From an uncultured bacterium (GTDB lineage Bacteria > Edwardsbacteria > AC1 > EtOH8): a stretch of DNA of 64,000 nt. A program made the position numbers and the translations under genes. Shown here in pieces: positions 9,361 to 49,228 of the stretch (position 1 is the first letter of the stretch; each line of letters begins with the position of its first letter). The notes below the pieces were generated by a model that was not told the DNA's origin, did no database searches, and saw only the letters and a program-made list of their open reading frames with translations. The stretch is from positions 11,667 through 75,666 of the forward strand of contig CAZFJC010000012.1 of the NCBI GenBank assembly GCA_964518765.1, given 5' to 3'.

Positions 9361-10110
9361 ATGAAGCTCCTATACTATTTTTCCATAGTAATGCTTTTAT
9401 CCACCCAGGCGGCCCCGGCCATCCAATTCGGCGAGATGGTGGACTTCCCCACCGCCGGCACCATGGGCCGAGGCGCATACGCCATCGACATGCGGATGCA
9501 GCCGGTGGGCGGACTGCTGCTGGGGCTTTCCTTCGGCATGTTCGATCGCTTGAACCTAGGGGTCACCTACGGCGGCGACAACATCATCGGCTACGGCCGC
9601 CCCAATTGGAACCCTTCTCCGGGGGTCCAGATTAAATACCGCTTCTGGGACGAGAGCTATTGGTTTCCGGCCATGGCCGTCGGCTTCAATAACCAGGGTT
9701 ACGGGCCCTGGTACGGTAGTCGCTACCTCACCAGATCCCCGGGGTTCTATGCCGTGGCCTCGAAAAACTACCGCTTCCTGGGGACGCTCGGGTTCCACGG
9801 CGGCGCCAACTACAGCATCGAGGACCGAGACAACCCAGATAACTCGGTCAGTTTCTTCGGCGGCATCGAGAAGTCGCTTAATCCCGAGCTGTGGCTGGTG
9901 GCCGAGTACGACCTGGCCCTCAACGACAATTTGGAGGACCAGCAGTTCGGCGAGGGCTACGGCTACCTCAACGGGGGACTGCGCTGGCTCTTCAGCAAGC
10001 GGCTTCTTTTGGAGTTCGACCTGAAGAACATCCTGCGCAACGGCTACGGGGAGCAGCCCTCGGCCCGCATCGGCCGCACGGTGAAGATATCCTACTATGA
10101 TTCTTTCTGA
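9361..10110 (+). CDS. Outer-membrane beta-barrel protein, hypothetical
   Basis: 250 aa from MKLLYYFSIVMLLSTQAAPA (signal peptide). Alternating amphipathic strands, Gly/Tyr-rich. C-terminal ..ISYYDSF ends in Phe, typical of OMP beta-barrels. Confidence 0.5.
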   Translation: MKLLYYFSIVMLLSTQAAPAIQFGEMVDFPTAGTMGRGAYAIDMRMQPVGGLLLGLSFGMFDRLNLGVTYGGDNIIGYGRPNWNPSPGVQIKYRFWDESYWFPAMAVGFNNQGYGPWYGSRYLTRSPGFYAVASKNYRFLGTLGFHGGANYSIEDRDNPDNSVSFFGGIEKSLNPELWLVAEYDLALNDNLEDQQFGEGYGYLNGGLRWLFSKRLLLEFDLKNILRNGYGEQPSARIGRTVKISYYDSF

Positions 10111-10142
10111 TCGGGCTTAGTCACCAGTCCCCGCTTGAAGCC

Positions 10143-10177
10143 GAAGCCGCTCCCTTCCGAGAGCGGCTTCTCTTTAT
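10143..10177 (+). terminator. Rho-independent terminator after the OMP gene
   Basis: GAAGCCGCTCccttccgaGAGCGGCTTC followed by tctttat. Confidence 0.5.
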
Positions 10178-10256
10178 CCCCTCTTGAGAGGGGAACGAGG
10201 GGTGTGTTATACTGTTTTCAGCATTTCACACACCCCCGACCCCTCTCCCAGAGGGG
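10178..10256. repeat. Composite nested palindrome of the CCCCTC/GAGGGG hairpin-repeat family (MITE/REP-like)
   Basis: cccctcttgagagggg-aacga-ggggtgtg ... cacacacccc-cga-cccctctcccagagggg. Two self-complementary G/C hairpins in inverted orientation around a 20-nt AT-rich core. Confidence 0.45.
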
Positions 10257-10279: not shown

Positions 10280-11317
10280 GTGACGTTCGCAGACAAACCC
10301 TCCATCCTGGGCCTCTCCCCGGAGCAGCTGACCGAGGCGGCCAAGCCCGAGCTGCTGCGCTCCTACCAGGCCCGGCAGATAATGGCCTGGATTTACCAGC
10401 GGGGCATTGCCGATTTTTCGGCCATGACCGACCTTGGGTCGCCTTTGCGAAAACGCCTGTCGGAGCGTTTCTCCATAACCAGGCTTTCCGTTAAACGGAT
10501 GGAGGTATCAGCCGATGGCACCAGGAAACTGCTCCTGACCGCCCCCGACGGCCAAAGCTTCGAGTGTGTGCTCATCCCCGGCCGAAACCGGCTGACCGCC
10601 TGCCTTTCCTCCCAGGCCGGTTGCCGGCTGGGCTGCGCCTTCTGCGCCACCGGGGCCATAGGTTTCGGTCGGAACCTGACCGTGGCCGAGATGGCCGAAC
10701 AGCTGCTCCGGCTGAAGGCCCTGGCGAATACGCCAGTGACCAACGCCGTCTTCATGGGCATGGGCGAGCCCCTTGACAATTACCATAACGTGCTGGCGGC
10801 CGCCCGGCTGATCAACTCGCCCCAGGGCTTTGGGCTGGGGGCTCGGCATATCACCATCTCGACCGCCGGCTTGGTGCCGGGCATCGGGCGGCTGGCCGAA
10901 GAGCCGGAGCAATTCAAGTTGGCTGTCTCGCTCAATGCCGCCGACGACGCCGTCCGGAACCGGCTGATGCCGGTGAACAGAAAGTATCCCCTCGGCGATC
11001 TCCTGAAGGCCGTCAAGAGATACGTATCAAGGACCGGAAAGCTGGTCACCTTCGAATATGTGCTGATCTCGGGGATCAACGACCGCCAGGTGGACGCCCG
11101 GAACCTGGGCCGGCTGCTGAAAAGAACTCCTTCCAAGGTGAATCTGATCCCCTACAACGGCCCTCCGTCCGGGATTTTCGCGCCCCCGCCCCCGGATTCG
11201 GTCCGCAAGTTCCACCGAACGCTCTCCCAGCTCCACCCCAAGGTGACCATCAGGGCCAGCAAGGGACGGGACATCTCCGCCGCTTGCGGGATGTTGAAAG
11301 CATCCTGCTCCATCTAG
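10280..11317 (+). CDS. rlmN: 23S rRNA (adenine2503-C2)-methyltransferase, radical SAM
   Basis: 345 aa. CRLGCAFCATG radical-SAM Cys triad. Conserved RlmN N-terminus (LSPEQLTEAAKPELLRSYQARQIMAWIYQRG) and C-terminal ..SAACGMLK. Confidence 0.9.
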   Translation: MTFADKPSILGLSPEQLTEAAKPELLRSYQARQIMAWIYQRGIADFSAMTDLGSPLRKRLSERFSITRLSVKRMEVSADGTRKLLLTAPDGQSFECVLIPGRNRLTACLSSQAGCRLGCAFCATGAIGFGRNLTVAEMAEQLLRLKALANTPVTNAVFMGMGEPLDNYHNVLAAARLINSPQGFGLGARHITISTAGLVPGIGRLAEEPEQFKLAVSLNAADDAVRNRLMPVNRKYPLGDLLKAVKRYVSRTGKLVTFEYVLISGINDRQVDARNLGRLLKRTPSKVNLIPYNGPPSGIFAPPPPDSVRKFHRTLSQLHPKVTIRASKGRDISAACGMLKASCSI

Positions 11318-19338: not shown

Positions 19339-20445
19339 CTAAAAGAACTTGGCGATGGCCTCGACCACCTGGTCCTGCTGGGCTGGGGTAATCTCAGGGT
19401 ATATCGGCAGCGAGAAGACCTGGCTGGCCGCCTCCTCGGCCACCGGGTAGGAGCCCTTCCCCTTGCCCAGGAACGAGAAGGCCGGCTGCAGGTGCAGGGG
19501 GATGGGATAATGCACGGCGTTGGGCACGCCATTTTTATTCAGGTGCTCGATCATAGCATCCCGCCTTCCGGTGCGCAGGGTGTATTGGTGGTAGATCATC
19601 TCATTGTAGGGCCTGACCTGGGGCGTCCTGATGTCCCCCACCCCCTTGAAGGCCCGGTCGTAGTAGGCCGCCTTCTCCCGTCGCGCCTGGTTCCACTGGT
19701 CGAGATATTTCAGCTTGACGCCCAGCACCGCGGCCTGGAGCGCGTCCAGCCTGGAGTTGACCCCGATCCTGACATGGTGGTACTTCCTGTCCGAGCCGTG
19801 CTGGCGCAGCACCTTGCATTCCCTCTGCATGGCCTCGTCCGAGGTCAGGATCATGCCTCCGTCGCCGTAGGCCCCCAGGTTCTTGCTGGGGAAGAAGGAC
19901 AGTCCGGCGATGTGGCCCATGGAGCCGGTCTGCCGGCCCCGGTATCTGGCCCCCAGGCTCTGGGCGCAGTCCTCGATCACCTTGAGGTTGTGCTTTTGGG
20001 CAATGGCCATTACCTCGTCCATGTCGGCCGCCTGGCCGTAGATGTGCACCGGCATGATGGCCTTGGTCTTGGAGGTGATGGCCGCCTCGATCTTGGTCGG
20101 ATCGATGTTGAGGGTGTCCGGGCAGACGTCCACGAACACCGGCCTGGCCGGGATCCAGGTGACCACCTCGGCGGTGGCGATGAAGGTGAAGGGGGTGGTG
20201 ATGACTTCGTCTCCCTCAGAGACCCCGGCGGCCTTGAGCGCCAGGTAGAGGGCGTCGGTGCCCGAGTTGACCCCTATCCCGTATTTGACCCCGACGTATT
20301 GGGCCACTGCCGCTTCGAACTCCTCGACCGTCTTCCCCAGGATGAAGCCTCCGGAAGAGACCACCTTCTCGATGGCGGCGTCGATTTCGGGCTTGATGGT
20401 GCGGTACTGGGCCGTTAGGTCCAGCAGGTAGAGTTTTTCTGCCAT
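19339..20445 (-). CDS. DegT/DnrJ/EryC1/StrS-family PLP-dependent sugar aminotransferase
   Basis: 368 aa. LDLTAQYRTIKPEIDAAI..GGFILGKTVEEFE..GVNSGTDALYLAL..DEVITTPFTFIATAE is the canonical family pattern. Confidence 0.85.
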   Translation of the reverse strand: MAEKLYLLDLTAQYRTIKPEIDAAIEKVVSSGGFILGKTVEEFEAAVAQYVGVKYGIGVNSGTDALYLALKAAGVSEGDEVITTPFTFIATAEVVTWIPARPVFVDVCPDTLNIDPTKIEAAITSKTKAIMPVHIYGQAADMDEVMAIAQKHNLKVIEDCAQSLGARYRGRQTGSMGHIAGLSFFPSKNLGAYGDGGMILTSDEAMQRECKVLRQHGSDRKYHHVRIGVNSRLDALQAAVLGVKLKYLDQWNQARREKAAYYDRAFKGVGDIRTPQVRPYNEMIYHQYTLRTGRRDAMIEHLNKNGVPNAVHYPIPLHLQPAFSFLGKGKGSYPVAEEAASQVFSLPIYPEITPAQQDQVVEAIAKFF

Positions 20446-20571
20446 GGTGTTGGTTCCTTTATGGATTTATGTGTAAGTTTTAACGTTTAAGGGTTTGCGA
20501 AACGGGCGTAGCCGGTTTAAGTGACGACCACAATAAAGAATAATGTGAAACTGCTGACGCAAACCCGTTTG

Positions 20572-21309
20572 TTATGTGAAGTGGTTTAATTCATACTTAC
20601 TTAGCTTTGTTTTTATTTTATTAGATACACAAGTATTATATTTTAAGTTTATAATGTAATCGGTTACTTTATACTCAAATTCTTTTATTGGCATACCAAA
20701 TGTATCAAAAAAACAACGAACAAAATCTTTTTTTATATTCTTGTAAAATGTTTTGAATTTTGAAACACCAAAACGAGTTATTATCTGGTCAATAAAAACG
20801 CCAGCTATAGGATATGTTACATAATCTTGGTGTTTGTTGAATTCTTGATTTTGGGCTAACTTTGTTATACCAGGATAAGCGTTATTTTTAAGGTAATATT
20901 GAGTCCACGCTTCATTCGGGATTCCCCACCAAACTTTATCAAAGTACATTGCCAGACCTTCGCGTAACAATTTCTGATTTGGTCTTGATAAGGTGTTAGA
21001 AGAGATTAAATGCACGTCCTCGTGAAAACCAATACATTTAATTCTTCTATTGTATACAGCATATATTTTATCTGGACGTATAGCAAGACCATTGGTAGGT
21101 TCATTATTACCATATAGTTTGCCAATTTCATGTGGTGATTTACATAAATAATAATGTATTCTTATATTAGGCTTGACTTTTAGAATATCACAAATATATA
21201 CATAGCAACTTTCTTGAAGTGAGATTATCTTTCCGATTTGTTTTTCCGCAAGAGAGTTGCTGTGATAATAAAAGTCATAGTGTGCTGTTTTTTTGATGTT
21301 CCAATTCAT
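20572..21309 (-). CDS. Hypothetical protein carrying an HExxH motif (FHEDVH), in an AT-rich island (~30% GC vs ~65% flanking); possibly a WbqC-like polysaccharide-locus protein
   Basis: 245 aa, Asn/Lys/Tyr/Ile-rich as expected from low-GC DNA. Single HEDVH motif. No signal peptide or TM segment. Directly adjacent to the DegT aminotransferase. Confidence 0.55.
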   Translation of the reverse strand: MNWNIKKTAHYDFYYHSNSLAEKQIGKIISLQESCYVYICDILKVKPNIRIHYYLCKSPHEIGKLYGNNEPTNGLAIRPDKIYAVYNRRIKCIGFHEDVHLISSNTLSRPNQKLLREGLAMYFDKVWWGIPNEAWTQYYLKNNAYPGITKLAQNQEFNKHQDYVTYPIAGVFIDQIITRFGVSKFKTFYKNIKKDFVRCFFDTFGMPIKEFEYKVTDYIINLKYNTCVSNKIKTKLSKYELNHFT

Positions 21310-21532
21310 AAAATTAGAAAATTGTGTGTTTATTTATAGCCATTTCACATAACTACTGGCTTTGCGACATTACGTCGTGAAGCCGACCACCAGTGGCTGG
21401 ATATGCGCACTGTTTCGTATATTTCCTCAATGGCTTTTACCCGTTCAACACTGCCTATAGCCCCTTACCCGACGTTGCCTTACTTTGACCGATCGTAAAC
21501 ACTCCCCGCGCCGCTGTATATATACCTTATCC

Positions 21533-23290
21533 TCACGTCCCCTCCACCGAACAGGTCAGGGCCAGGTCCGGGAACAGCCCGATGACGAACTCGGCCAGCA
21601 CCGCCCGGGCCTTCTCGGCGCTCTCGGCCTCCATGGCCTTGGCCGCCACCCGACGGCACTGATCCAGCCTTAGGCTGAGGATCATCCGCTTGACCTCGGG
21701 TACGGCTATCGGATTCATGCTGAACTCGTCCAGGCCCAGCCCCAAAAGCAGCGGCACCGCCAGCGGATCGGCGCACATCTCGCCGCACATGCCCACCCAG
21801 ATACCGGCCCGGTGCCCGGCCTCGATCACCTCCCTCACCAGCCTCAGCACCGCCGGGTTGAAGGGATCGTACATCCGGGCCACCTTCTGGTTGGTGCGGT
21901 CCACCGCCAAGGTGTACTGGGTGAGATCGTTGGAGCCGATGCTGAAGAAGTCGGCCTCGGCCGCCAGCGCCTGGGCCGACAATGCGGCCGCCGGCGTCTC
22001 GATCATAATGCCCACCGGACACTTCTCGTCGAACCTGGCCTTGGATTTCTTCAGCTCCTCCCTGGCCTCCTCGACCAGGACCCTGGCCCGCCTCAGTTCC
22101 TCCAGGCAGCAGATCATGGGAAACATCATCTTGACCTGGCCGTGGGCCGAGGCCTTGAGGATGGCCCGTATCTGTGACTTGAACATCTCGGGCCGGTCCA
22201 GGCAGAAGCGGATGGCCCTCCAGCCCAGGAAGGGGTTGGCCTCGGGCTCGGGCGCCTGGCCGCCGATCTTGTCCCCGCCCAGGTCGAAGGTCCTGATGAT
22301 GACCGGATCCGGGGCCAGCTTCTCGACCACTCGCCGGTAGATGGCGTACTGCTCGTCCTCGGACGGCAGCCGGTCCGAGGTCAGGAAGAGGAACTCGGTG
22401 CGGAAAAGGCCCACCCCCTTGGCCCCGTGCGACAACACCGAGGCGACCTCCTCGGGCAGCTCGATGTTGGCCGACAGCTCCACCTGATGTCCGTCCCGGG
22501 TAATGGCCTTGGAGCGCCTCAGCTTCTTGAGGTCGGCCACGTGCTTCAGGTAGGCCTTTTGCTGTTTGCGGTAGCTCTCCAGGGTGGCCGGGGCCGGGTT
22601 GAGGATGACCATCCCCCGGTTGCCGTCGACCACAGCCCAGTCTCCCTGCGAGGCCTGGATCAGTACACCCTTGACGCCCACCACCGTCGGTATCTCCAGA
22701 CTGCGGGCGATGATGGCGGTATGGGAGGTCTTACCTCCCAGCTCGGTGACCATCCCCAAGGTCCTCTGGGCGGACAGAAAAGCGGCGTCGCCAGGGGAAA
22801 GCTCGTGTGCCAGCACGATGGACTCTTTGGGGATGCTCGGCGCCTGGCCCTGCTCGCGGACGTGCTTGACCACCCGCCAGGAGATATCCTTGATGTCGAC
22901 CACCCTCTCCTTGAGGTACTGGCTGTCCGATGACTCCAGCTGGGCCGCCACCTGCTCCATCACCTCGTGGAAGGCCGAGGCCGCGTCCTGTCCCTCGCGG
23001 CGGATCCTCTCCTTGGTGCGCTCGGCGGCAGTGTCGTCGGAGAGCATCATCAGCTGGGCATCCCACAGCCGGGACTCATCCTGGCCAAGCCGCTCCACCA
23101 CCAGGCTTCGCAGCTCATCCAACTCGGCCCGGGCCCGCTCCACCGCCTCGACGAACCTCTGGACCTCGGACTCGGCGTCGGCCACCTTCTGCCTGGTCAC
23201 CGCCCCAGTGCCCTTGCGGTAGATGGCGATCCGCCCGATGCCGATGCCGGGCGAGGCGGCTATCCCTTGAAGCCTGATCTCCTTCAGCAT
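21533..23290 (-). CDS. ptsI: Phosphoenolpyruvate-protein phosphotransferase (PTS enzyme I)
   Basis: 585 aa. MLKEIRLQGIAASPGIGIGR.. N-terminus. His-domain, PEP-utilising domain (GGKTSHTAIIARSLEIP) and C-terminal TIM barrel. Confidence 0.9.
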   Translation of the reverse strand: MLKEIRLQGIAASPGIGIGRIAIYRKGTGAVTRQKVADAESEVQRFVEAVERARAELDELRSLVVERLGQDESRLWDAQLMMLSDDTAAERTKERIRREGQDAASAFHEVMEQVAAQLESSDSQYLKERVVDIKDISWRVVKHVREQGQAPSIPKESIVLAHELSPGDAAFLSAQRTLGMVTELGGKTSHTAIIARSLEIPTVVGVKGVLIQASQGDWAVVDGNRGMVILNPAPATLESYRKQQKAYLKHVADLKKLRRSKAITRDGHQVELSANIELPEEVASVLSHGAKGVGLFRTEFLFLTSDRLPSEDEQYAIYRRVVEKLAPDPVIIRTFDLGGDKIGGQAPEPEANPFLGWRAIRFCLDRPEMFKSQIRAILKASAHGQVKMMFPMICCLEELRRARVLVEEAREELKKSKARFDEKCPVGIMIETPAAALSAQALAAEADFFSIGSNDLTQYTLAVDRTNQKVARMYDPFNPAVLRLVREVIEAGHRAGIWVGMCGEMCADPLAVPLLLGLGLDEFSMNPIAVPEVKRMILSLRLDQCRRVAAKAMEAESAEKARAVLAEFVIGLFPDLALTCSVEGT

Positions 23291-25639: not shown

Positions 25640-25692
25640 TCGGTCAAAATGCGATTAATATTTCATCCATACAGACGCAAGCCCCTGGCCTT

Positions 25693-25908
25693 CGGCCGCC
25701 CCTCGCTCCCCTCCTTGGTAAGGAGGGGATTTAGGGGTGGTTGGTTCGCCGCACCCCTCGCTCCCCTCCTTGGTAAAGAGGGGATTTAGGGGTGGTTGGT
25801 TCGCCGCCTCTCTTGTTCCCCTCCTTGGTAAGGAGGGGACTCAGGGGTGGTTGGTTCGCCGCGCCCCTCGCTCCCCTCCTTGGTAAGGAGGGGATTTAGG
25901 GGTGGTCA
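25693..25908. repeat. Tandem array of four 55-nt nested-hairpin repeat units
   Basis: Unit cgccgcNcccctcgctcccctccttggtaaggaggggatttaggggtggttggtt. Outer stem CCACCCCT/AGGGGTGG, inner stem TCCCCTCCTT/AAGGAGGGGA. The array directly abuts the stop of the DUF559 gene. Confidence 0.8.
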
Positions 25909-26262
25909 GTCCCTTGCATTTAGTATAGCTTTCAACACACCTTCCATGTTCGCTAAAACATCGTCATTGTTGAAGCGAAGCACTTTGATGCCCAACCCCT
26001 CTATGTAATCTTGTTTCTTCTTGTCCCGCACCCCTTGCCTTGGGCTTCCATGCACGCTCCCGTCTAATTCAATGGCGATTCGAGCAGAGGGACAATAGAA
26101 ATCGACGATATATTTACCGATGCTGTGCTGACGCCGGAACTTCATCCCGTTAAGTTGGCTTCTTTGCAGCCTTTTCCAAAGCAGTATCTCGGCCATTGTC
26201 GAATTGTTGCGCAGGCTCCTTCGAATGCTTTTCAATCCTGGACGGTTATGAACTCGGGCCAT
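25906..26262 (-). CDS. DUF559 (Vsr/restriction-endonuclease-like fold) endonuclease-domain protein
   Basis: MARVHNRPGLKSIRRSLRNNSTMAEILLWKRLQRSQLNGMKFRRQHSIGKYIVDFYCPSARIAIELDGSVH. Lower GC (~47%). The track ORF extends to a GTG at 26292 inside the adjacent repeat; ATG at 26262 preferred. Confidence 0.75.
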   Translation of the reverse strand: MARVHNRPGLKSIRRSLRNNSTMAEILLWKRLQRSQLNGMKFRRQHSIGKYIVDFYCPSARIAIELDGSVHGSPRQGVRDKKKQDYIEGLGIKVLRFNNDDVLANMEGVLKAILNARD

Positions 26263-26287
26263 TTCAGTAATACCCTGTTTGCTCTCG

Positions 26288-26430
26288 ACCACCCCTCGCT
26301 CCCCTCCTTGGTAAGGAGGGGATTTAGGGGTGGTTGGTTCGCCGCGCTCCCTCGCTCCCCTCCTTGGTAAGGAGGGGATTTAGGGGTGGTTGGTTCGCCG
26401 CGTCCCCCTCCCCCGGGGGAGGGGGACGGG
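26288..26430. repeat. Two further nested-hairpin units plus a perfect 28-nt GC palindrome (GTCCCCCTCCCCCGGGGGAGGGGGAC)
   Basis: Same unit as 25693-25908, immediately upstream of the DUF559 start. Palindrome at 26402-26429. Confidence 0.75.
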
Positions 26431-26482
26431 GTAGGGTCAACCCGAAAAGTGTAAAAGTGTAAAAGGGTATAGCGTAAACATT

Positions 26483-26734
26483 TTACTTTGCGAGACGAAA
26501 GCCTACGCCGCTGCTGCGGTTGTCCGGGTTGTCGTTGCCCCGGTAGGCAGTGCGGCAGTAGTTACCGCTGTTGATGAAACTGCCGCCGCGGATGACGCGG
26601 GCCGTTCCGGACGACGGGCCGGTAGGGTTGTCGCGAGATCCGCCGGAGGCGTGGCTGGAGGGCGAACTGCCGTAGTAATTTTTGTGTGTGCTTAAAAAGC
26701 CACAAACCGTAATCATACGCTTTCGTAAAAACAA
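26483..26734 (-). pseudogene. Truncated 3' fragment of a formylglycine-generating-enzyme (SUMF1) family gene; partial duplicate of the C-terminus of the adjacent 26801..28720 gene
   Basis: ..[65 protein letters not shown] aligns with the neighbour's C-terminus [58 protein letters not shown]. No upstream domains. The N-terminal 18 aa of the ORF are not homologous. Confidence 0.55.
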
Positions 26735-26752
26735 TCAGCTCGTTGGCGCTCA

Positions 26753-26795
26753 TAATTTTCCAGATTTTCAGATTACCAGATTTTCAGATATTCAG
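26753..26795. repeat. Short tandem repeat, ~8-nt unit (CAGATTTT/CAGATTAC/CAGATTTT/CAGATATT)
   Basis: ttttccagattttcagattaccagattttcagatattcag, between the gene fragment and the full-length gene. Confidence 0.6.
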
Positions 26796-26800
26796 TGTAT

Positions 26801-28720
26801 TTACTGGGCGACACGGAAGCCGATGTTGTCGTTCCTGATGCCCGGGTAGTTCCTGCCGCGGTAGGCGGAACGGCAGTTGCTTGCAATGTTGTCCCAGCTT
26901 CCGCCGCGCAGCACCCGGAGGTCGCCAAAGGACGGGCCGGTAGGGTTATTGGAGGGCGAACTGCCGTAGTAATTTTCGCCATACCAGTCGTTGCACCACT
27001 CCCAAACATTGCCGGCCATGTCGTGGCACCCATAGGGCGAAACGCCGGAGGGAAAACTGCCCACCGGGGAGGTGTTAGTATAGTCTCCGTCTTCATAACT
27101 ATTGCATTTGCCGGCATCCCAAGTGTTGCCCCATGGGTATTTTCTTCCATCAGTCCCCCGGGCCGCCTTCTCCCATTCGGCCTCGGTGGGCAGGCGCAGG
27201 CCTGCCCAGTCGCAGTAGGCTTTGGCATCGTGCCAGGTTACATTCACCACCGGGTGGTCGTTCCTATTATTCCAAGAGGGCTGTTCCGGCATGGTCCTGC
27301 CCGTGGCATTGCAGAACTTTCGGAACTGCCCCACCGTCACCTCGTATTTGCCTATGTAGTATTTGTCCAAGTAAACCGTGTGCACCGGCTTTTCGTCACC
27401 GTCGCCGTCATCAGAGCCCATGGTGAAGCTGCCGGCCGGGATCTCTATCAGCACCGAGCCGTCCTTTTCGTTCACTATCTCTCGGCCTTTCGCAGCTTGA
27501 CCACCCCTCGTCTCCCCTCCTTGCCCAAGGAGGGGACTAAGGGGTGGTTGGGTGGTCTTCAGCACCACATTCCGCGCCACGCTCTGCCCCGGCCCCACGC
27601 TTACGCTCACCTGCCCCACCTGGTAGCCGTTCTTTTCCACCTTAACATTGTATGTCCCCGGTTCCAGCCCGGTAACACTGCAGGGGGTGATGCCCCGCGG
27701 CGTTCCGTCAACGTTAACGCTGGCCCCGCTGGGCGTGCTGGTTATCACTATCGAGCCCGGCTTGGGGGAAAGCACCGCATTCAACGTGTTTCCCTCCCCG
27801 CTTTCTATGGTCATCTCCACCTCGTAGGTCGCATAGCCGGTTTTGCTCACCCTTATCTTATGGACACCGATCCCCAGCCCGGCAACCTTCAAACCTGTCG
27901 AACCTGCCCCGAGCGAAGTCGAGGGGCCTGTCAAACCTTTTCTGACGCCATCTATGTAAACAGTAGAGTTTGCCGGCTCCGAGGTTACGGTCAGCGTTCC
28001 GTATTCTTTGGTCAGAACCGCATTGACCGAGGCGGTGATATTCTTGGCCACATTCACCGTTTTGGAGACGCTGCTGTAGCCGTCCTTGACTATGACTATG
28101 TTGTGCTCTCCTATTTCTATTTTGGATATAAGCCCCGGGGTGGCCCCGACGTCAGCCCCGTCCAGAAAGATCCGGGCGCCAGGCGGCGTGGAACTAACCT
28201 TTATACTGCCGTATTCGGATTTTGTCTCGGCTATGGGCGTGGCCGTCGGCTTCGGCTTCCATCTGGAGAACTCGGCCGCCGCCTCCTTCATGGCATCAAG
28301 GAGATTGGAGATGTCGCCCGTGTATTTCTTGGAGAAGGCCATGTCTATCTCGCCGGTCTTGACGTCGATCATCCGCAGCTCCACGGCGAAGACCGCCCCG
28401 AACTTGCCGATGGTTCCGCCGAACATCTTCTGCACCCCCAGGTACTGCCCGGCCTCCACCAGGCAGGAGGTGGCGTCGCAGGCCCCGCTCTGCTGGAATC
28501 CCTGCTCGCGGAGGATCTCGTCGCGCTTGGAGCGCTCGATTACCTTGTAGGCCCCCTGGCCGACGAACTCGTTCAAGAGCTTGTCGGTCAGCATCACCAC
28601 CTCCTTGGCCGACAGACCCTCGGTGACGTTGAGGTCCATCACCGAGACCGTCAGCTTCTGGGCGGCGGCCAGGCCTGCCAGCAGAAGTGTGGCGATTGTT
28701 ATCTTAACCAGCCTATCCAT
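26801..28720 (-). CDS. Lipoprotein with three PEGA domains and a C-terminal formylglycine-generating enzyme (SUMF1/FGE-sulfatase) domain
   Basis: 639 aa. Signal peptide [25 protein letters not shown]-like repeats ([12 protein letters not shown].., [12 protein letters not shown].., [12 protein letters not shown]..). FGE domain ([51 protein letters not shown]). Confidence 0.8.
27498..27557. repeat. Copy of the nested-hairpin repeat embedded in-frame inside the PEGA/FGE coding sequence (linker region)
   Basis: gaccacccctcgtctcccctccttgcccaaggaggggactaaggggtggttgggtggtc is 60 nt (20 codons). Translated on the minus strand it gives ..[20 protein letters not shown].. between the last PEGA repeat and the FGE domain. 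Confidence 0.65.
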
Positions 28721-28770
28721 CCAATCTGGCCTTTCTTCTGATTTCCGCCTTCTGCTTTCCGTCTCAAGAT

Positions 28771-48070: not shown

Positions 48071-49228
48071 TCACCGGCTGCGCAGCAGCGCCCCCACCCC
48101 CTGGTACCTGTCCAGCTCGGACTTGCCGGAATAGAACTCCACCTTGGCGCCGCTCCTGACGGCCAGCTCCACCAGCTCCTCCTTCATGTCGGCGGCCTCG
48201 GTCACCTCCTGGCTCTGGCAGAAGGGGCAGTTCCTGGCCTTTCCTCCGCTCCCCATCTGCATGCAGCTGGCGCACTTCCATCCGCGGCCGGCGTACTGGT
48301 CGGAAACCACCAGCAGCTCGGCCTGCCCGCTCTGAAGCGCGTTGAGGGTGGCCTCGGTGCCCACCACCGCCCGGCCGCCCTTGCCGGTCCCCCATACCAC
48401 CGCCTCCCGGGCCGCCCTCATCGAGCCCTCGTTCTCCGCCCTCTTGAATATGGCCAGCGTTTCGGAAAGCATCCGGTGGCGCGGGGTTCTTATGTCCATG
48501 GCGCCGCCCTCGATGGTCATGGCCTTCAGGGCCGGAGGCATCTGCCTCTTGAACTCGGCCTGGACGCCGTTGTCGGCCATCAGGATGACGGCATCCACCC
48601 GCCCGCCGAGAAAGAACCTGACGGCCTTCTGCAGGACGGCCTTGGCGTGTTTGGATACCTGTTCCATCAAATGCCGGCGGTAGCGTTCGTCCGAGTGTCC
48701 CAGGCGGCCCTTCTTGGTCTCGTAACCCTTGCTGGCCACGGCCTCGACATCGCTGACGATGTCCATCTCCTCCTCGACCTCGCCCAGGTTAACCCGTATC
48801 AGCCTGGCCCTCTTCTCGTCGCTCATGATGACGCCATAGGCGGAGAAGTCGTCGGCCATCTTCACCAGGGGATAGATATAGGGCAGACGGGAGACGATGA
48901 CGTGATTCTCGAAAGGCTGGGCCGTCTGGACCGCGGTGAAGACCTTCTTGCCCTGTGATATAAAGAGCGCCAGCCCCCGGGCGCGGCTGTTCACCTCCTC
49001 CTTCAGGTAGCGGTTGATCTCCCTGATGTCGGCCATCAGGTAGCCGTCAAGCGGGGAGCGCTGGGCGTACTGCTTCTCCAGCTCGGAGAACCTCTTCTTG
49101 AGGAAGGTCTGGTAGTGCCGCTGCCCCTTGGGGTCGGGCCGCAGGTCCAGGTAGAGGCTCATGATCAGGCCCTCGTCCAGCCTGATCTTGGCCAGTTGAC
49201 GGATAGTGCTGTTAATGTCGGTGCCCAT
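48071..49228 (-). CDS. eRF1/Pelota-superfamily protein (bacterial eRF1-like, 'baeRF' type) with a C-terminal zinc-ribbon insert; no GGQ motif
   Basis: 385 aa. C-terminal eRF1 domain-3-like block GTEATLNALQSGQAELLVVSD followed by WKCASCMQ..NCPFCQ (Zn ribbon). N-terminal LYLDLRPD.. and a central domain without GGQ. RBS GGGAGGA 9 nt upstream of the ATG. Confidence 0.55.
   Translation of the reverse strand: MGTDINSTIRQLAKIRLDEGLIMSLYLDLRPDPKGQRHYQTFLKKRFSELEKQYAQRSPLDGYLMADIREINRYLKEEVNSRARGLALFISQGKKVFTAVQTAQPFENHVIVSRLPYIYPLVKMADDFSAYGVIMSDEKRARLIRVNLGEVEEEMDIVSDVEAVASKGYETKKGRLGHSDERYRRHLMEQVSKHAKAVLQKAVRFFLGGRVDAVILMADNGVQAEFKRQMPPALKAMTIEGGAMDIRTPRHRMLSETLAIFKRAENEGSMRAAREAVVWGTGKGGRAVVGTEATLNALQSGQAELLVVSDQYAGRGWKCASCMQMGSGGKARNCPFCQSQEVTEAADMKEELVELAVRSGAKVEFYSGKSELDRYQGVGALLRSR

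Follow-up and report, generated by a model that had tools for sequence, protein, structure and literature searches.

A low-GC island between ptsI and degT in a Zixibacteria-related genome: a probable integron-type gene cassette carrying a predicted gluzincin metallopeptidase

The sequence considered here is a stretch of 64,000 nucleotides from contig CAZFJC010000012.1 of an uncultured bacterium related to the Zixibacteria; this whole 64-kb stretch is called the window, and positions refer to it unless another locus is named. Between two of its genes, ptsI (enzyme I of the phosphotransferase system, PTS) and a gene for a DegT/DnrJ/EryC1-family aminotransferase (degT), lies an AT-rich island of about 1 kb with a single gene. 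The locus raises two questions: how did a segment of such unusual composition come to lie between these two genes, and what does its gene encode? We consider it probable that the island is an isolated integron-type gene cassette, comparable to a single attC lacking integron-integrase (SALIN) or a small cluster of attC lacking integron-integrase (CALIN). The predicted fold and motifs of its product are those of a stand-alone gluzincin metallopeptidase.

Composition of the island and its insertion site

The two bordering genes and the gene of the island are:

21533..23290 (-): ptsI, PTS enzyme I; core gene, upstream border of the site
20572..21309 (-): open reading frame (ORF) of 245 aa; predicted stand-alone cytoplasmic gluzincin metallopeptidase, HEDVH 96-100 and Glu117 (alignment, AlphaFold2 model, Foldseek)
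19339..20445 (-): degT, DegT/DnrJ/EryC1-family aminotransferase (PF01041, E 3e-127); core gene, downstream border of the site

The content of guanine plus cytosine (GC) is 0.619 for the entire window. At the island it falls from ~0.63 to 0.30-0.35; in subwindows of 300 nt it is 0.27-0.36 between ~20400 and 21450, with both flanks at 0.61-0.69. The lowest 1-kb subwindow has a GC of 0.336, which is ~6.7 standard deviations under the mean of all 1-kb subwindows, and everywhere in the 64 kb the subwindows with GC <0.53 overlap the island. The 245-aa ORF is the sole one of at least 60 aa within it. Its GC is 0.299 and its GC at third codon positions (GC3) is 0.25, while the GC3 of the other 45 picked ORFs of the window ranges from 0.62 to 0.95 and that of the flanking genes from 0.75 to 0.95. 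The degT gene, with a GC of 0.63, is at the level of the host. The initial annotation, made from the letters alone, had described an abrupt drop from ~65% to ~30% at 20.5-21.4 kb, a single gene at 20572..21309 with one FHEDVH motif and no transmembrane segment, and DegT next door. All of this is borne out by windowed GC, by the ORF list with hydropathy and by the PF01041 match. The island is confirmed as a real and sharp compositional island.

It is important to compare the site with the same position in related genomes. The in-situ comparison was anchored on PtsI, with close relatives collected from a metagenome scan and a protein search. Of the PtsI relatives, one (83%) carries the label candidate division Zixibacteria, and the more distant ones appear under Edwardsbacteria or TA06. 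A scan of the GTDB representative genomes with PtsI gave only relatives of at most 46% identity and no in-situ information. The HPr and GH57 genes lie further along past ptsI. Across the relatives the order is syntenic from lptC through rpoN, hprK, GH57, ptsH and ptsI on to degT, and the shared block goes on past degT with a 1466-aa sensor kinase, an HD-GYP regulator and CheX. The content of the ptsI-degT spacer differs among these loci (the percentage is that of PtsI):

L163 (92%): spacer empty, 43 bp
L164 and L165 (92%): spacer empty, 37 bp
L166-168 (87%): spacer empty, 55 bp
L084 (62%; DegT 78% identical): spacer empty, 50 bp
L169 (86%): type II restriction-modification (R-M) genes, N6_N4 methyltransferase and MvaI/BcnI (PADLOC REase_II, 1e-85); GC ~0.35
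L170-173 (83%): type III Mod and Res (PADLOC REase_III)
L174 (83%): type II methyltransferase, C5 methyltransferase and NOV_C protein
L083 (79%; FWPV01009732.1, 7760-8530): island of 30% GC with an unrelated 160-aa orphan gene, then a type I restriction endonuclease gene (PADLOC, 3.5e-32)
L175 (87%; 9794-10222): AT-rich lipoprotein-like ORF at the same left element (see below); the contig ends inside the ORF
L177 and L178 (71%): gene-free spacer of 207 bp in L177; L178 has the same PtsI and differs just before the degT ribosome-binding site

The downstream synteny is the same at the loci with an empty site, and none of the eight distinct relative loci whose sequence runs past ptsI has the peptidase gene in situ. 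By this comparison of sequences, the ptsI-degT spacer is a hotspot that varies from strain to strain, and most of the cargo that can be recognised in it is restriction-modification. Some details of individual loci can be added. The 160-aa orphan of L083 shows by eye a PD-(D/E)xK-like DIVI...EIK motif, with no Pfam match and a weak PADLOC match to HEC-02B (E 1.8e-4). The ORF of L175 begins with a lipoprotein-type signal (LLTLLSC) and has no Pfam match. In L177 (9759-9965) and L178 (2132-2448) the first ~190 nt of the spacer are common and the sequences then diverge.

The initial annotation had suggested recent horizontal acquisition, and it had remarked that a gene kept at this site in relatives with the same low GC would argue for an ancient gene of the lineage. 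The gene is not conserved at the site in the relatives. Recent acquisition is supported by the empty site in the closest relatives and by the unameliorated composition. It is hardly credible that the island is a chimera of assembly or binning, or an ancient lineage-specific low-GC gene. The sequence does come from a metagenome-assembled genome, and no other organism is known to have the exact protein (a cluster of 1 member). However, the identical sequence with the same junctions is present in the Logan assembly L001 of run ERR4534291, which was produced separately, although the same reads possibly underlie both. Together with the precise logic of the junctions described below, this makes a chimera unlikely. 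Synteny is also conserved on both flanks, and an ancient gene is at odds with the absence from the relative loci.

The attC-like site and the cassette junctions

The proposed cassette and the sequences around it are arranged as follows:

21426..21532 (-): further non-native sequence of ~107 nt, GC 0.50, directly past the ptsI stop; no counterpart in empty sites, weak similarity to L083
21353..21425 (-): conserved left element, ending ...TAATGTCGCAAAGCC-AGTA-G, common to four loci with different cargo
20484..21352 (-): proposed gene cassette, 869 bp, GC 0.31, with G|TT crossover points at 21353|21352 and 20484|20483
21310..21352 (-): 5' leader of the cassette, starting TTATGTGAAATGG, complementary to the R'' arm of its own attC-like site
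20484..20578 (-): attC-like site, with R'' CACATAAC at 20571-20578 overlapping the stop codon
20558-20566 and 20491-20499 (-): L box of the site, L'' GGGTTTGCG and L' CGCAAACCC, respectively
20567-20570 and 20485-20490 (-): spacers of the site, AAAC and TTAAAC, with the G of R' at 20484
20500-20557 (-): variable region of the site, 58 nt
20446..20483 (-): native ptsI-degT spacer and degT leader (TTAAAACTTACACATAAATCCATAAAGGAACCAACACC); 33/36 to the L174 leader, resembling the 37-55 bp empty-site spacers

The attC sites of integrons have R''/R' boxes of the form AAC...GTT with the consensus RYYYAAC/GTTRRRY, spacers of ~5-6 nt and a length of 57-141 bp (PMC5027507). The right end of the island can be read in this way. 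The inverted repeat that the initial annotation had placed at the boundary exists, two bases off its coordinates, and the sequence around it identifies this repeat as the L box of an attC-like recombination site, so that it does more than mark a boundary. The R'' box of the window, ACATAAC, fits RYYYAAC at 6/7 positions, and R' reads G|TTAAAA in situ and G|TTATGT in the reconstituted site, where the right end is joined to the cassette's own 5' bases. The reconstituted site of ~101 nt folds with a 10-bp R box, an unpaired spacer of 4/6 nt, a 9-bp L box and a variable terminal structure.

Sites of the same design are found at the 3' ends of two other cargos. The one in L083 (~100 nt) reads GTATAAC-AAACA-GGTTTGC...GCAAAGC-TGCAAAC-GTTAGGC, with R boxes GTATAAC/GTTAGGC, and the one in L174 (~170 nt) reads GCCCAAC-AAAC-CAATGCGG...CCGCATTG-GTCACAC-GTTATCA, with R boxes GCCCAAC/GTTATCA. 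The spacers per arm are 4/6 nt in the window, 5/7 in L083 and 4/7 in L174 as assigned by hand (3/6 with the one-base-longer stem of the scan). The L boxes of the three sites covary: GGGTTTGCG/CGCAAACCC in the window corresponds to GGTTTGC/GCAAAGC in L083 and CAATGCGG/CCGCATTG in L174, where the sequence is wholly different and the complementarity is kept. The 126 nt past the ORF of the window align with the 136 nt past the unrelated orphan gene of L083, with conserved ends and a variable centre. The attC-like element of L174 (14403-14574), past the methyltransferase/NOV_C cargo, also contains a near-consensus promoter-like sequence, TTGACA-17-TACAAT, directed toward degT.

Further evidence comes from the junctions. 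The R'' box is complementary to the start of its own cassette after the G at position 21353 (G|TTATGTGAAATGG), with 13/14 positions pairing in the window, 10/14 in L083 and 9/14 in L174. Mismatched combinations of R'' and start score 4-9, and in each row of the cross-comparison the own pairing is the best. A circular cassette that was opened at G|TT classically leaves such complementarity. The similarity between loci breaks at the same points. Around the left G|TT, the window and L174 are identical at 35/40 positions upstream and unalignable downstream; around the right G|TT they are unrelated before it and identical at 33/36 positions after it, in the native degT leader. The window and L083 are related only before the right G|TT (28/38). 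These breakpoints at G|TT in three pairwise comparisons define the cassette as 21352..20484, with a length of 869 bp. Other copies of the conserved elements, in the window and 160+ fetched loci, occur only at the ptsI-degT hotspot, and scans of viral contigs for exact motifs of both elements gave only chance matches in unrelated coding sequence.

These observations suggest the following course of events. A foreign cassette of ~870 bp, with ~180 bp of accompanying non-native sequence, would have been inserted in the short spacer between ptsI and degT. The circular form of the cassette, with the junction ...CCCTTAAACG|TTATGTGAAATGG, would have been opened at G|TT through a tyrosine recombinase of the integron type whose gene lies elsewhere, and precise excision of the cassette would leave ...GCCAGTAG joined to TTAAAACTTACAC. 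The cargo would derive from a peptidase family native mostly to low-GC Firmicutes. It would probably be transcribed by read-through from ptsHI into degT. The cassette ORF is co-oriented with the surrounding operon and has no recognised promoter; scans for promoters and terminators gave nothing better than shuffled sequences, and no terminator was found between ptsI, the cassette and degT. Read-through is plausible because of the co-orientation, the lack of a predicted terminator and the position of degT only 37-55 bp past ptsI in the empty alleles.

An inverted repeat downstream of a gene might also be an ordinary terminator hairpin. This was rejected, as no terminator with a T-tract is predicted and a hairpin does not explain the complementarity of 13/14. 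A further explanation is a non-autonomous transposon, similar to a miniature inverted-repeat transposable element, with a passenger gene between 30-nt terminal inverted repeats. A repeat search does find a 30-nt inverted repeat of 80% complementarity flanking the ORF (20555-20584 with 21340-21369). However, there is no target-site duplication outside this repeat, no transposase was detected, and a further conserved L'-R' half extends beyond the right arm. In addition, what L174 has of the left arm is confined to the outer 19 nt (as far as GTAG|TT), with the inner part missing altogether, so the breakpoint lies inside the supposed terminal repeat, not at its outer edge. We regard a transposon of this kind as very improbable.

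The sequence to the left of the cassette needs separate consideration. Between the ptsI stop and the cassette there are ~180 nt of non-native sequence with a GC of 0.50. The last ~70 nt of it (...CACTGG..CGGCTT..TAATGTCGCAAAGCC-AGTA-G|TT) are common to the window, L174, L175 and L083 and absent from the empty sites. The 3' half of this left element resembles the L'-R' half (L'-spacer-G|TT) of the attC-like site of the window. Only a small GGCTT/AAGCC hairpin is consistently predicted in it, with one compensatory change in L083. The left element may represent a landing site similar to attI or, alternatively, an attC that has degenerated.

A number of points weigh against an integron-type cassette. 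A tblastn search of the 64-kb window and the fetched loci with an IntI1 sequence found no IntI-like ORF, and Pfam detected housekeeping domains only and no integrase domain in the ~22 ORFs of the window that were scanned, a part of the total. The AAC-stem-GTT architecture by itself is not rare: two distinct sites are found in the window against ~4 strand-hits per shuffle. The other site of this form, AAC-spacer-stem...stem-spacer-GTT at 10698-10920, lies inside an RlmN-like radical SAM gene and illustrates the chance background. The window site shows no clear canonical pair of extrahelical bases and its 9-bp L stem is perfect, with one alternative fold in which a G bulges beside the L box (bottom strand, L'' side). 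Its R'' box fits the consensus at only 6/7, its unpaired spacers of 4/6 nt differ from the usual 5-6 per arm, and the ~170 nt of the L174 site exceed the canonical 57-141. The covariation is based on three complete examples only. The left element does not fold as an attC and has no closure of R and L boxes, either by RNAalifold or in single-strand folds. Finally, L169 and L170 carry R-M systems without either of the conserved elements, so not all traffic at the hotspot need use a cassette route. A search of Rfam, whose collection contains no covariance model for attC, detected no known RNA in the island under either gathering or permissive thresholds, and there is no tRNA near the island.

Some of these points would be expected under ordinary horizontal transfer into the hotspot, by illegitimate recombination or by homologous recombination through ptsI and degT, with the repeat a mere hairpin or terminator and no cassette mechanism. 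No integrase was detected nearby, AAC-stem-GTT arrangements occur by chance at about the observed density, the R-M systems of L169 and L170 arrived without both elements, and the flanking homology would spread any insert between strains. However, such a transfer leaves unexplained the complementarity of 13/14 between R'' and the first bases of the cassette, the same rule obeyed with other sequences in L174 and L083, and the breakpoints of similarity exactly at G|TT; nor is there a predicted T-tract terminator. We judge this explanation unlikely, though it deserves to be taken seriously. Since the bare AAC-stem-GTT pattern is not rare, the case for an integron-type cassette rests on position, homology, junction complementarity and breakpoints, all drawn from no more than three complete examples.

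Known systems provide useful comparisons. Defence islands and integration hotspots between core genes are a general concept in the literature on E. coli and Pseudomonas. The ptsI-degT spacer is similar in that one intergenic spot is empty in some strains and holds type I, II or III R-M genes in others. It differs in that attC-type site-specific recombination appears to serve at least part of the traffic, and in that its cargos include two, the peptidase and the lipoprotein-like ORF, that cannot be recognised as defence genes.

SALINs have been described together with integrase-mediated insertion outside att sites (bioRxiv 10.1101/2022.09.11.507474). The SALIN and small CALIN categories used here follow that work and IntegronFinder 2 (PMC9024848), with CALIN meaning at least two attC without an integrase. 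Experimentally, integrases insert cassettes at genomic sites outside integrons, and a resident promoter can express them (bioRxiv 10.1101/2022.09.11.507474; PMC9024848). The island resembles SALINs and small CALINs in its one ORF, which lacks a recognised promoter, followed by an attC-like imperfect hairpin with AAC...GTT and a G|TT crossover, in the lack of an integrase detected nearby, and in its chromosomal intergenic position downstream of a resident operon; its sister cassettes carry R-M genes among their cargo. In contrast to such elements at attG, four different cargos follow one conserved left element of non-native sequence, which suggests a reused landing site and not independent attG hits. 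The site has no evident extrahelical bases, the GC of the cassette is ~30 points under that of its host, and the host is uncultivated and Zixibacteria-related.

Sedentary chromosomal integron arrays, which have lineage-specific types of attC and carry defence genes (bioRxiv 10.1101/2024.07.02.601686; PMC5027507), likewise have sites with shared ends and a variable centre, as those of the window and L083, and compact restriction or defence genes are again present among the sister cargos. The present locus is not a complete integron. It has no detected intI, recognised attI, Pc promoter or long array; ptsI lies directly upstream, and at most one or two cassettes per genome are seen at the hotspot.

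The cargo: a predicted gluzincin metallopeptidase

K, I, Y and N are abundant in the 245-aa protein, which has a single FHEDVH motif and contains no hydrophobic stretch (maximum KD19 hydropathy 1.13). The initial annotation had favoured the WbqC-like family and a link to a glycan locus, and had mentioned as an alternative that HExxH could mark the active site of a metallohydrolase. Searches of Pfam, NCBIfam and PADLOC with the protein gave no family at E <= 1, and PHROGs gave nothing usable. Among 5.8 billion proteins 246 homologues were found; the best apart from the protein itself is 62% identical and most are 40-55% identical. Those with names are from low-GC Firmicutes (Tissierella, Clostridium, Paraclostridium, Romboutsia, Paraliobacillus), and several are labelled 'Peptidase MA-like' in UniRef. 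In an alignment of 73 members, H96, E97, D98, H100, R116 and E117 are invariant. In gluzincins the third zinc ligand is a Glu on a helix ~18-25 residues further along. Glu117 is located 17 residues after His100, on a predicted helix of residues 113-123, and the invariance of HExxH...E represents the gluzincin signature. PF13485 (Peptidase_MA_2) is matched by 15 of the 73 homologues, with a best E of 2e-5, and is the only family that recurs among them. The protein of the window itself does not match it and is under every Pfam threshold, which weighs against this assignment.

The AlphaFold2 model calculated on the 73-member alignment is confident, with a predicted local distance difference test (pLDDT) score of 95.6 and a predicted TM-score (pTM) of 0.91. 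The model has a thermolysin-like catalytic fold: the best Foldseek matches in the PDB are all catalytic domains of clan MA, with a probability of 1.0 and a query TM-score of 0.5-0.62; they include collagenases G and H (M9), lugdulysin (M30), and IRAP, LTA4H and aminopeptidase N (M1). The sequence identity to these solved structures is only 8-13%, and searches of PDB sequences with the protein and with the family profile gave noise only. By predicted fold and by motifs, the protein is a stand-alone gluzincin metallopeptidase, so the active-site alternative of the initial annotation gains support. It shares with gluzincins (PF13485; MEROPS M1, M9 and M30) the HExxH helix with a Glu ligand 17 residues past the second His, and an N-terminal β-sheet subdomain with a helical C-terminal subdomain. 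It differs from the known ones in its length of only 245 aa, in the lack of accessory domains and of a signal peptide, and in forming its own family. The protein is a predicted cytoplasmic zinc metallopeptidase of an uncharacterised family, small and probably active; its activity is perhaps aminopeptidase-like or oligopeptidase-like.

A WbqC-like or other glycan-modifying enzyme, acting with DegT in a low-GC locus of O-antigen type, can be dismissed. Glycan loci are often low in GC, and the gene does adjoin that of an aminotransferase. However, PF08889 is absent from the matches of the protein at E <= 1, as is any other Pfam family, and also from the families matched by the 73 homologues, while fold and motifs are those of a gluzincin peptidase. 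The functional link to DegT is not supported either: degT, with the GC of its host, directly follows ptsI in relatives that lack the island, and the peptidase gene adjoins it because the cassette landed there.

The distribution of the family agrees with a foreign origin. A profile search of 1.84 billion cluster representatives (50% identity) found 3050 at E <= 1e-3 and 110 at E <= 1e-30; the members are mostly stand-alone proteins of 230-260 aa. The closest homologue (P0002) is from a genome of 39% GC. As the homologues are found in low-GC genomes, the composition of the island matches the usual hosts of the family. In six places, drawn from the 24 contigs read, the Clostridium celatum homologue has the same fixed surroundings in the chromosome: it lies between a methionine-aminopeptidase-type M24 (SEC-C) gene and an HD-domain (HD hydrolase) gene, which is not a glycan locus. 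A scan of IMG/VR with the family alignment gave one locus, on a 29% GC contig and adjoining metal-efflux genes, which is uninformative. A tblastn search of phage and plasmid collections with the peptidase gave no match.

The company of the gene at the hotspot raises the possibility of a role in defence. Defence genes have been reported in cassettes of chromosomal integrons (bioRxiv 10.1101/2024.07.02.601686), and this report and the R-M genes at the hotspot allow such a role. On the other side are the lack of any PADLOC-DB 2.0 defence family at E <= 1 for the peptidase, the stable, housekeeping-like context near a methionine aminopeptidase in C. celatum, and the near absence of the family from phage collections. 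A defence role of the gluzincin is thus doubtful. A wider proposal, speculative to about the same degree, is that the left element is a lineage-specific attI-like landing pad in the ptsHI-degT operon, served by an integrase elsewhere, that its cassettes are mostly for defence, and that the gluzincin is a single-gene anti-phage effector. If this were true, the locus would be a satellite integron platform that swaps low-GC cassettes without an integrase of its own, and the gluzincin would be a protease of the abortive-infection type, not a housekeeping peptidase.

Other features of the window and significance

The conserved block contains a second strain-specific insertion, at 25640-28770 between the GH57 gene and hprK, where relatives have ~70-190 nt. 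It includes:

26801..28720 (-): 639-aa CsgG/PEGA/FGE-sulfatase protein
26483..26734 (-): 83-aa FGE-sulfatase fragment
25906..26292 (-): ORF for a DUF559/REase_MTES_1575 Vsr-like endonuclease, in a dip of GC to 0.50

Elsewhere, at 48071-49228 (-), a 385-aa protein with a baeRF_family10/acVLRF1 release-factor-like domain (E 4e-22) is encoded next to the gene of a fructose-bisphosphate aldolase.

A full-text literature search for 'integron' with 'Zixibacteria' found mentions in passing only, none of them about integrons in this lineage. The locus would provide a clean natural example of an integron-type cassette outside any integron, in an uncultivated phylum, and empty, alternative and occupied alleles of the one site are all at hand for comparison. 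It has a bearing on how cassettes come to spread outside integrons and on how they are connected with defence hotspots. A plausible but wrong lead for annotation, the WbqC family or a glycan locus, is corrected. In its place, a family of small, predicted cytoplasmic gluzincins (~3000 cluster representatives), as yet uncharacterised, is flagged as probable mobile cargo.

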